The notes under the pieces: model-generated
The model's input: only the letters and a program-made list of their open reading frames with translations
Told to the model about the DNA's origin: nothing
Database searches by the model: none
Program-made: the position numbers and the translations under genes
Part shown: in pieces, positions 5,731 to 8,036 of the stretch
Layout of the letters: each line of letters starts with the position of its first letter
Position numbering within the stretch: position 1 is the stretch's first letter
Source of the DNA: Eledone cirrhosa
Lineage: Eukaryota
Length of the DNA stretch: 64,000 bases
NCBI GenBank assembly: GCA_964016885.1
Contig: OZ024745.1
Span: forward strand, 97,650,001 to 97,714,000
Reading direction: 5' to 3'

Positions 5731-6313
5731 TGAGAATTGAAACCGCGCGGTAAGGGTAAATATAGTAAGTACAGTAAACTTTTTAAAATTTATTTTAAAA
5801 CTTTTTCTCTATTTGCTAAACCGTGATTATATATGTTCTGGCTCGTTAATTTATTAACCTGCCATAGAACCACATTGGCATACGGTTGAATAATACATGT
5901 GTCCCTATATGCATTTTTTGCACGTAGGAAAACATACTTTATTATTATTAATCTCCCCTAAGGTCGAGATAACATTTTGGTCGTTTTTACTGCTGCTATT
6001 TCTAGTGGCAGGACATTGACCTTTCCGCCCTTGCCTTCTATCTTTACACACGGCACTGGACAAGATTGTTTCCTTATACACTCTCATCCGGGAACAGTTC
6101 TGTATGGCGCCAGTTCGTGATTTGAACTCGGGAATTTTATATTCTCCGAGTGAGAAGAACCCTCTGACGAAATTCTCCTTCTCAATGGTGTTCCGCATGG
6201 ATTATCCATTTATTTTGAGACTTGAAACCGCGCAGTAAGGGTAAATATAGTAGGTACAGTAAACTTTTTAAAATTTATTTTAAAACTTTTTCTCTATTTG
6301 CTAAACCTTGATT
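5731..6313 (+). mobile_element. 485-bp partial-tandem hammerhead unit, family E
   Basis: GAAAccgcgc..aaacc.tgatta occurs at 5739 and 6224 (period 485); (TA)n on both sides. Confidence 0.75.
6159..6242 (+). ncRNA. Type-I hammerhead, family E, 39-nt loop II
   Basis: accct-CTGACGA-aattctc...gagactt (gagaatt in the copy at 5732)-GAAA-ccgcgcag (ccgcgcgg)-TA-agggt. Confidence 0.75.
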
Positions 6314-7333
6314 ATATATATATATATATATATTGTACATATATATATATATATACATATATATATATATATATATATATATATATATATATATACATAT
6401 ATATATATATATACATATATATATATATATATATACATATATATATATATATACATATATATATATATATATATATATACATATATATATATATACATAT
6501 ATACATATATATATATACATATATATATATATATATATATATATATATATATATATATATATATATATACATATATATATATATACATATATATATATAC
6601 ATATATATATATGCATATATATATATATATATATATATATATATATATATATATATATATATATATATATATATATATGCATATATATATATATATATAT
6701 ATATATATATATATATATATATATATGCATATACATATATATATATATATGCATATATATATATATATATATATATATATATATATATATATATATATAT
6801 ATATATATATATATGCATATATATATATATATGTATATATATATGTATATATATATATATATATATGCATATATATATATATATATATATATATATGCAT
6901 ATATATATATATATATATATATATATATATATATGCATATATATATATATATATATATATATATATATATATATATATATATATATATATATATATATGC
7001 ATATATATATATATATATATATATATGCATATATATATATGTATATATATATATGTATATATATATATATGTATATATATATATATATATATATATATAT
7101 ATATATATATGTATATATATATATGTATATATGTATATATATATATATGTATATATATATATATATATATATGTGTATATATATATATATATGTATATAT
7201 ATATATATATATATATATGTATATATATATATATATATATATATATATATATGTATATATATATATATATATATATATGTATATATATATATATATGTAC
7301 AATATATATATATATATATATATATATATATAT
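6313..7333. repeat. About 1-kb interrupted (TA)n tract
   Basis: Direct reading; source of the IY-repeat ORFs. Confidence 0.95.
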
Positions 7334-8036
7334 GCAAGACGTAAAATTATAAAATTATAAAAATTAACTTACTTATAATTGTTCTGTATATAATTGTTCT
7401 GCATCCGCTTGCATTGAACCACAAAGTTACTAAGACAAAACCTATATATTTGCTAGCATAGGTATGCATCTGTATATATATATATTGGTAGATATACTAA
7501 TTCTTTATAATTATCTCCAAATTATTTTGTTGAGCAAAAATTTGCCAAAACTGCTACTATAGTTCATAATAATGGTTCGGCTACTGTCTTTTTAACACCC
7601 CATTCCTCACTGATTAACCTCGATGTCACGTGATTGATTCTTTTGAATTTGCCACCGACCAAGTAGGCAGTGATTTTTTCAATTTCTTGGAATTTACTCC
7701 ACGCTTGCTTTTTTCCATCCACTGAATTATTTTTGTATAAGTTCCCTGTGTCCACGCATCGCCTGGGAACTTCGCTGAGAACAGACTTCCTGATGACGAA
7801 AGGTTTCTCCATGCGTTCCATTCGGAAACCATATTTATTCCCTTTCAGAAACTAATTAGTTGGAGTGAAATTTTAGTAAGTAAGTTAATTTTTATAGTTT
7901 TCTTATTTTACGTCTTTCATATAATTGTTCTGCATCGCCTTGCATGGAACCACAAAGTTACTAAGACAAAACCTATATATTTGCTAGCATAGGTATGCAT
8001 CTGTATATATATGTTGGTAGATATACTAATTCTTTA
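7334..8036 (+). mobile_element. About 530-bp partial-tandem hammerhead unit, family F, with short inverted 5' end
   Basis: ataattgttctgcatc..aattcttta occurs at about 7390 and 7922; 7338-7375 is inverted relative to about 7877-7914. Confidence 0.7.
7785..7866 (+). ncRNA. Type-I hammerhead, family F, 37-nt loop II
   Basis: acttc-CTGATGA-c-gaaagg...cctttc-a-GAAA-ctaattag-TT-ggagt. Confidence 0.75.

Follow-up and report, generated by a model that had tools for sequence, protein, structure and literature searches.

Scattered over the 64,000 nucleotides of Eledone cirrhosa DNA analysed here (contig OZ024745.1, positions 97,650,001 to 97,714,000; hereafter the window) are several lettered families of hammerhead motifs, and the question they raise is whether the bases just 5' of helix I pair with loop II to form a pseudoknot that recurs from family to family. 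A sequence-only reading had listed such pairings for seven families (A, B, E, F, G, L and N), of which only E and F lie inside 6151-7866, and had taken their recurrence as evidence for a Watson-Crick contact conserved across families. All seven were checked, and the listed pairings are present where they had been placed, with the coordinates of E exact. The wider proposal is partly supported, in that support holds for about three families and not for seven. The reading favoured here, to which we give a probability of roughly 0.58, is that E and F together, G and probably B are type I hammerheads with a bracing pseudoknot between the 5' flank and loop II, predicted to cleave faster at low Mg2+.

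Hammerhead motifs and other repeats in the window

The window consists of eukaryotic-type DNA rich in microsatellites and with many repeats. Over its first 46 kb, with microsatellites stripped, a strict type I descriptor returned seven motifs with a domain II of 25-100 nt and nine with a short domain II, against means of 0.04 and 0.01, respectively, in 200 shuffles. These are type I hammerhead motifs (predicted ribozymes) of small mobile repeats, and they occur far above chance. Five of the seven long-domain-II motifs have a palindromic helix III. Relaxed searches added the core variants B (U4A), L (U4C and G12A), N (U3-A8), M and S; the changes in B and L, together with a C-A mismatch in F, make core or junction defects a feature of several copies.

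The CUGANGA, GAAA and UH core elements stand in type I order in E, F, G and A, with the base of helix II mismatched in the last three. A palindromic helix III of 1-2 bp is found in F, G, A, L and the partial-repeat copy of E (E'); E itself is one change short of it and B is non-palindromic. In core-constrained folds helix I measures 30-31 nt in C, H and N versus 4-5 nt in E, G, A, M and J, and loop II spans 37-84 nt in A, E, F, G, L, M and S. Rfam gave no hammerhead match at the gathering score and none among the best 150 of 305 rows by E-value, all of which were driven by microsatellites, and long inserts may be the cause of these missing matches.

Two related CUGAUGA sites on the plus strand, 3237 and 24629, are without a 3' half and were excluded from all tests, as were the shortened copies 5651, 18004 and 38943. 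Each has retained TGGTTG upstream and, roughly 35-40 nt downstream, CAACCA, which might be one more pairing of flank and loop. The CUGANGA site at 25772 (CUGAAGA, in the ORF 25739-26188) was rejected as a chance site, with GGGA instead of GAAA. A minimal hammerhead at 4530-4570 (minus strand) combines CUGAGGA, a 4-bp helix II and GAAACGUC without a loop III, and is of the kind described for PLEs. The family D hammerheads are arranged as head-to-head inverted pairs (13765-13945, 20775-21009 and 23338-23487), so that the motif is present on both strands.

Beyond the hammerheads, the window holds a C2H2 zinc-finger fragment, a GIY-YIG-like ORF, and two long open tandem ORFs of LINE type on the minus strand (53140-56424 and 58881-62396; 1094 and 1171 aa), both endonuclease-RT-zinc finger, which are possibly recent insertions. 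A SINE-like repeat whose head resembles a tRNA is abundant (3552-3755, 11027-11428, 19455-19563, 34180-34491 and 45766-45939) and presumably is similar to a cephalopod SINE; no tRNA gene was found in the window.

Families E and F

The type I motif of family E, found by descriptor search and inspection, occupies 6159-6242 on the plus strand. Helix I pairs 6159-6163 with 6238-6242 and is followed by the core CUGACGA (6164-6170), a helix II of 6171-6177 with 6217-6223 that has one mismatch, GAAA at 6224-6227 and a near-palindromic helix III at 6227-6236, with cleavage predicted after GUA 6237. The proposed 5' pseudoknot strand, tgagaag at 6151-6157, ends 1 nt upstream of helix I, and its partner, cttctca at 6178-6184, is the start of loop II. 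In a 6-bp register this pairing is worth -9.9 kcal/mol, and the nested fold pays nothing for it.

The E element (5731-6319, plus strand) is bounded by (TA)n tracts and consists of a 485-bp unit followed by 104 bp of partial repeat, with a GC content of 0.38 and a longest ATG ORF of 97 aa; the predicted circle of the unit has a fold z of -6.0 against 30 shuffles. An assignment of the E flank to a separate tRNA-like SINE was dropped, the flank belonging to the 485-bp unit. The partial-repeat copy E' (5732-5757, plus strand) keeps the perfect palindrome ACCGCGCGGT, the helix I 3' strand and a perfect helix II 3' strand, GAGAATT. With this strand, helix II reaches seven of seven pairs, which fixes helix II of E and leaves CUUCUCA free as the first bases of loop II, a point counted for the pseudoknot.

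The F motif, located in the same two ways at 7785-7866 (plus strand), has helix I at 7785-7789/7862-7866, the core at 7790-7796, helix II at 7797-7803/7841-7847 with its C-A mismatch at the base, a palindromic helix III at 7851-7860 and predicted cleavage after GUU 7861. Its proposed 5' strand, GAGAA at 7777-7781, stands 3 nt upstream of helix I and has an alternative, namely an extension of helix I with 7871-7881; the 3' strand, UUCUC at 7805-7809, is predicted to be unpaired when domain II is folded (P 0.98). The F element (7330-8038, plus strand) is likewise a unit, here of 531 bp, with a partial repeat between (TA)n tracts, and carries a 46-bp inverted piece at its left end. Its GC content is 0.34 and its longest ATG ORF is 85 aa, and the predicted unit circle has a fold z of -2.2 against 30 shuffles.

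The sequences of the pairings had been said to differ from family to family, which is false for E and F. Both use GAGAA/UUCUC, and their resemblance covers the 3' flank (p=0.006) as well as domain II (p=0.03) but not the 5' flank (p=0.69). Their upstream regions have no detectable homology (score 89 vs 87 ± 11) and cannot be aligned, which confines the kinship to the ribozyme and its 3' side. E and F are therefore two non-independent cases, and the seven labels stand for at most six families.

By inspection, helices I, II and III have all changed between E and F with compensation, with GAGAA and UUCUC unchanged; the changes were read by eye, the MAFFT alignment of E and F being wrong. For the pseudoknot strands this is conservation and no covariation, and their fixity while the helices turn over is counted for the pseudoknot. 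A search of the contig collection with the E/F pattern gave 13 matches, none with a helix I of at least 2 bp, so these matches are put down to chance, and a search of phage sequences for outside relatives gave one weak 31-nt match.

Flank and loop II pairing across the families

By calculated energy G is the strongest case, at a net -9.9 kcal/mol. The motif (12153-12279, plus strand) has a 95-nt domain II built as a three-way junction, pseudoknot strands gggca/tgccc at 12153-12157/12177-12181, and a helix II of 8 nt that far exceeds the 4-bp helix I, with no linkers, which counts against the pseudoknot. Family B, with its U4A core, was stated to pair over 8-9 bp in both copies, and does so: 9 bp in copy 1 (4048-4150, plus strand; 4048-4056/4102-4110) and 8 bp in copy 2 (19034-19132, minus strand; 19132-19125/19079-19072), where helix I is extended to 17 nt in the constrained fold. 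The pairing strands of the two copies are identical bar the end pair, and downstream 129 of 146 columns are identical. This near-identity shows descent and no covariation, and the sameness of the strands says little. An earlier reading of B as TTCCTG/CAGGAA was replaced by the distal pairing, CAGGAA possibly being part of helix II.

The remaining listed families are weaker. The degenerate motif L (26795-26925, plus strand; U4C and G12A) pairs 26795-26800 with 26821-26826 with one G-U, and its 5' strand has three alternative partners. In A (2716-2833, plus strand; 82-nt domain II) the pairing is a weak AU-only helix of 6 bp (2716-2721/2749-2754), and in the second copy (core 18004) the flank is replaced by (TA)n and AATAAT is absent, so that both strands are gone. 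For N the pairing holds in copy 2 (39345-39394, plus strand; TTGTT/AACAA at 39345-39349/39366-39370), which has a helix I mismatch, but not in the other full copy (39028-39077, plus strand), which reads TAGTT and has a GUU bulge in its long helix I complementary to AAC of loop II. Only 3 bp of pairing are common to the two N copies, in each of which the 5' strand is no 5' flank but forms a bulge or loop inside the 31-nt helix I. N therefore does not have the topology that had been proposed as shared. G, L and F are represented by one copy each.

Bulges of this kind recur in the short-loop families, where a 3-nt bulge of helix I can match loop II, as UAU/AUA for C and H and as GUU/AAC for N (5313, 38072, 13536 and 39037 on the plus strand and 37613, 13095 and 12785 on the minus strand). 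The tandem units that carry H and N (310 and 317 bp) are related, being 73% alike downstream, so that a compensated 3-bp kissing contact is possible, 3 bp being weak. In family J (15504, 17356 on the minus strand and 17853 on the plus strand) UUCCA abuts helix I and UGGAA lies in loop II, a non-significant 5-bp pairing.

In A, B, E, F, G and L the flank and loop II pair over 5-9 bp, with the 3' strand beginning 0-1 nt after the helix II 5' strand in E, F, G and L and about 5 nt after it in A and B, by hand-set boundaries. With domain II folded alone, the predicted unpaired probability of the partner strand is 0.70-0.98 for A, E, F, G and L, vs 0.32-0.54 elsewhere in the loop; these are five of ten motifs, the others being B1 and B2 (in the discarded register), J, M and S.

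Every one of the pairings may be a 5-9-nt complement that arose by chance in AT-rich repeats and was selected post hoc, with the hammerheads working, if at all, without the contact. This was addressed over nine long-loop families, with E/F counted once and including M, J, S and P, which the sequence-only reading had not listed. For each, the best helix between loop II and the 15 nt before helix I was compared for its own flank and those of the other families, with helix boundaries set by hand after the sequences were seen. Own flanks beat swapped flanks with p 0.0013-0.0097 (Fisher 0.003-0.035) under the first reading of B, and as B has two possible readings the tests were repeated with B re-read (p 0.0009-0.005) and with B dropped (p 0.0045-0.031). 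With the junction geometry added (at most 3 nt from helix I and at most 1 nt from helix II) p was 0.0007-0.0096, but when B and L were both removed, F stood for E/F and no geometry was used, it rose to 0.087-0.14, which speaks for chance. Against chance, the signal is specific to the 5' flank and the 5' end of loop II, with control geometries (3' flank vs loop, 5' flank vs far end of the loop) flat at p 0.32-0.67.

The recurrence claimed for the pairings thus exceeds chance as plain complementarity, but only marginally once competing folds are charged. When bases paired in the core-constrained fold were masked, p came to 0.049 and 0.11 with nine families and to 0.2 with fourteen; of 17 motifs, E (0.013) and G (0.021) alone fell below 0.05, uncorrected for multiple tests. 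Charging the displaced nested structure over a 35-nt flank gave p 0.046-0.26 (Fisher 0.13 and 0.60), and Fisher values over all tests that charge competition were 0.10-0.60. Per motif and uncorrected, this charged test gave 0.010 for E, 0.050 for G and 0.090 for B1, and 0.14-1.0 for the other eight of 11, which also speaks for chance. Flank/loop pairing in M, J, S and P is unsupported by it (p 0.55-1.0). Tests that place the nested fold first would be biased against pseudoknots, and the truth probably lies between the two sets.

Net energies of the listed helices, before any pseudoknot penalty, fall from G (value above) through E (-8.7 kcal/mol), B1 (-8.3), B2 (-5.6), N2 (-4.9), A (-4.3), L (-3.4) and N1 (-2.6, for 3 bp only) to F (-2.4). 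The best helices of E and G, at -9.9 and -10.0 kcal/mol, displace no nested structure, and the values of F and L are poor owing to the ability of their flanks to extend helix I. For E/F, G and B a Watson-Crick contact is plausible. It is weak or displaced in A, L, N and the F copy taken by itself, and the pairings of A, L and N are likely to be chance, decayed or a different contact. With neither E/F nor B1/B2 (two sequences each) showing a double change in the pseudoknot pairs, and with M, J, S and P unsupported, conservation across families does not stand as a general rule.

For the set as a whole we regard chance as unlikely. It gains from the three pairing modes of the L flank and from the rejected CUGAAGA site, which by eye also offers a 7-bp flank/loop complement, but it does not account for the junction geometry common to E, F, G and L, which has been described in earlier literature, nor for the GAGAA and UUCUC kept between E and F despite differing helices.

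Competing structures for the paired strands

If the pairing is real, it could instead form an early, non-pseudoknotted hairpin around CUGANGA that delays or blocks the ribozyme, as an off-switch or a folding intermediate, which we judge improbable. In nested ensembles the hairpin of flank and loop does dominate in L (11-12 bp, in a second register) and in S (P 0.92), excluding helices I and II, and an alternative register of B1 reaches 0.40. For E, F and G, by contrast, the nested probability of the proposed helix is 0.00-0.13, and the helix I 5' strand pairs downstream at 0.75-0.96. The strands of off-switches usually overlap helix I or II, whereas the pseudoknot strands here overlap neither. 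An early hairpin is nevertheless consistent with a helix able to form before the 3' half is made, and the pseudoknot helices of Perreault (2011) formed without the second strand (PMC3088659).

That the 5' flank in F, L and B instead extends helix I with the 3' flank across an internal loop, leaving an ordinary contact between loop II and the internal loop, is very unlikely. In its favour, helix I grows in constrained folds to 21 nt (F), 19 nt (L) and 17 nt (B2), the 5' flanks of F and L find about as good a partner in the 3' flank, keeping the 5' strand from pairing costs 4.9 (F) and 5.7 (L) kcal/mol, and N, C and H plainly belong to this type. Against it, the extension in F needs three G-U pairs and has two mismatches when E bases are set in the F register, none is predicted for E or G, and the listed strand of B lies beyond the extension, so that both can coexist.

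The bracing pseudoknot remains the preferred explanation for E/F, G and probably B. There, the bases just 5' of helix I would pair with a single-stranded stretch of loop II and hold helices I and II side by side, which should speed cleavage at low Mg2+; the contact would substitute for the one between loop and bulge that the short-loop families C, H and N can form through their long helix I. By analogy with known hammerheads, two copies per transcript would join through their palindromes to build helix III, and each would cut after GUA 6237 (E) or GUU 7861 (F). Tandem transcripts could then release unit RNAs of about 485 and 531 nt, which would become circles and be copied into (TA)n again, with a Penelope-type RT/endonuclease acting in trans.

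Relation to known hammerheads

A Watson-Crick contact joining stem I to stem II is itself already published and is not new here. In Perreault et al. (2011; PMC3088659), such a pseudoknot is reported for about 40% of hammerhead representatives, of types I, II and III, and is backed by disrupt-and-restore mutants with compensatory rescue at 0.5 mM Mg2+. A stem I-side helix right after stem II is described there as aligning the stems and as raising the rate of a type II motif 20- to over 100-fold; stem lengths matter, and highly repetitive type I motifs were outside the stem-length analysis. PMC10085705 also gives the I-II contact as one that can be a helix. E, F, G and L share the connectivity of the type II pseudoknots in PMC3088659, with at least 4 bp from the stem I side to the bases after stem II, but unlike the microbial type II motif tested there, with its 1-bp stem II, the motifs here have a helix II of about 7-8 bp, hairpins in loop II and a palindromic, dimer-type helix III. 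The motifs also differ from the PK hammerhead of PDB 8YDC (Zhan et al., 2024; PMC11300833), in which the pseudoknot replaces helix II; here it is peripheral, and such a replacement is excluded in E, F and G by a helix II of 6-8 bp.

The nearest likeness in other respects is to PLE hammerheads, which Cervera and De la Pena (2014; PMC4209133) describe as type I with a helix I of 4-5 bp, a helix II of 7-8 bp and a palindromic helix III, predicted to act as dimers, as a palindrome of 1-2 bp needs a second copy for activity. The motifs here share the short helix I, long helix II, palindromic helix III and U3-A8 core variant. In contrast, loop II is 3-9 nt in the 56 motifs aligned in its Fig. S3, where the descriptor may have limited loop size, against 37-84 nt here, and neither RT nor endonuclease is encoded by the E and F units. 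The paper reports slow cleavage in vitro even as dimers, finds no tertiary contact and, in the parts consulted, describes no pseudoknot. If a long-loop, pseudoknotted class is real, it could answer why the PLE hammerheads assayed so far cut slowly.

The link of the hammerheads to PLEs is modest. Between the A hammerhead and a GIY-YIG-like ORF upstream of it (Atlas 0.97; no Pfam match) are 620 bp, and a hammerhead at 27291 (minus strand) follows the ORF 27497-28360 (minus strand), which has a Pfam GIY-YIG match at E 2e-4, under the cut-off, and 2427 relatives, with a Pfam RT match in none of the six long ones. These ORFs are putatively of Penelope type, partly on the basis of their motifs. Fragments resembling Penelope endonuclease ends occur at 1092-2107 (plus strand), 27497-28360 (minus strand) and 28299-28670 (plus strand); the first is frameshifted near 1740-1760 and is 36% identical to the third over 102 aa. 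For one PLE, hammerhead cleavage was not needed for insertion in vitro (PMC11167929).

What was not found in the literature accessible to us, mostly outside subscription journals, is any paper on long-loop, pseudoknotted, dimer-type hammerheads, that is the pseudoknot together with a palindromic dimer-type helix III and a structured loop II of 37-84 nt, in ORF-less units of 485 and 531 bp in (TA)n. As the contact was already known, what is gained is a fresh context for an established device. PLE hammerhead variants were reportedly treated by Luense et al. in 2017, which may bear on novelty. If the base-paired contact in long-loop variants is true, searches limited to a short loop II would undercount ribozymes in animal genomes. 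That these motifs represent a widespread, overlooked class of animal retroelement hammerheads, with a multi-hairpin domain II of 40-95 nt, repeated swaps in unrelated families from loop-bulge contact to pseudoknot, and fast dimer-type ribozymes missed by Rfam and short-loop descriptors, is a rather doubtful extension. The giant squid has 235 Rfam hammerheads according to PMC6962438, and further literature for comparison is given by PMC8557442 and PMC6765202.

The E and F elements also recall the non-LTR retrozymes, which in Cervera and De la Pena (2020; PMC7229834) have units of 150-450 bp and canonical loop contacts; the word "pseudoknot" does not occur in that paper. In both kinds the tandem unit is ORF-less, low in GC and furnished with a single type I hammerhead, but E and F differ in unit size (485 and 531 bp), in having about 1.2 copies and in that their circles are predicted only. 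A U-U pair replaces G10.1-C11.1 at the base of helix II in A, C, D, G, H and J, and such a U-U is common to these families and axolotl HHR_Amex2, as described in the same paper (PMC7229834). The 310- and 317-bp tandem units noted above, at 12588-13705 and 38790-39558, have one hammerhead each and an inverted partial copy, and in size and layout they are as in non-LTR retrozymes.
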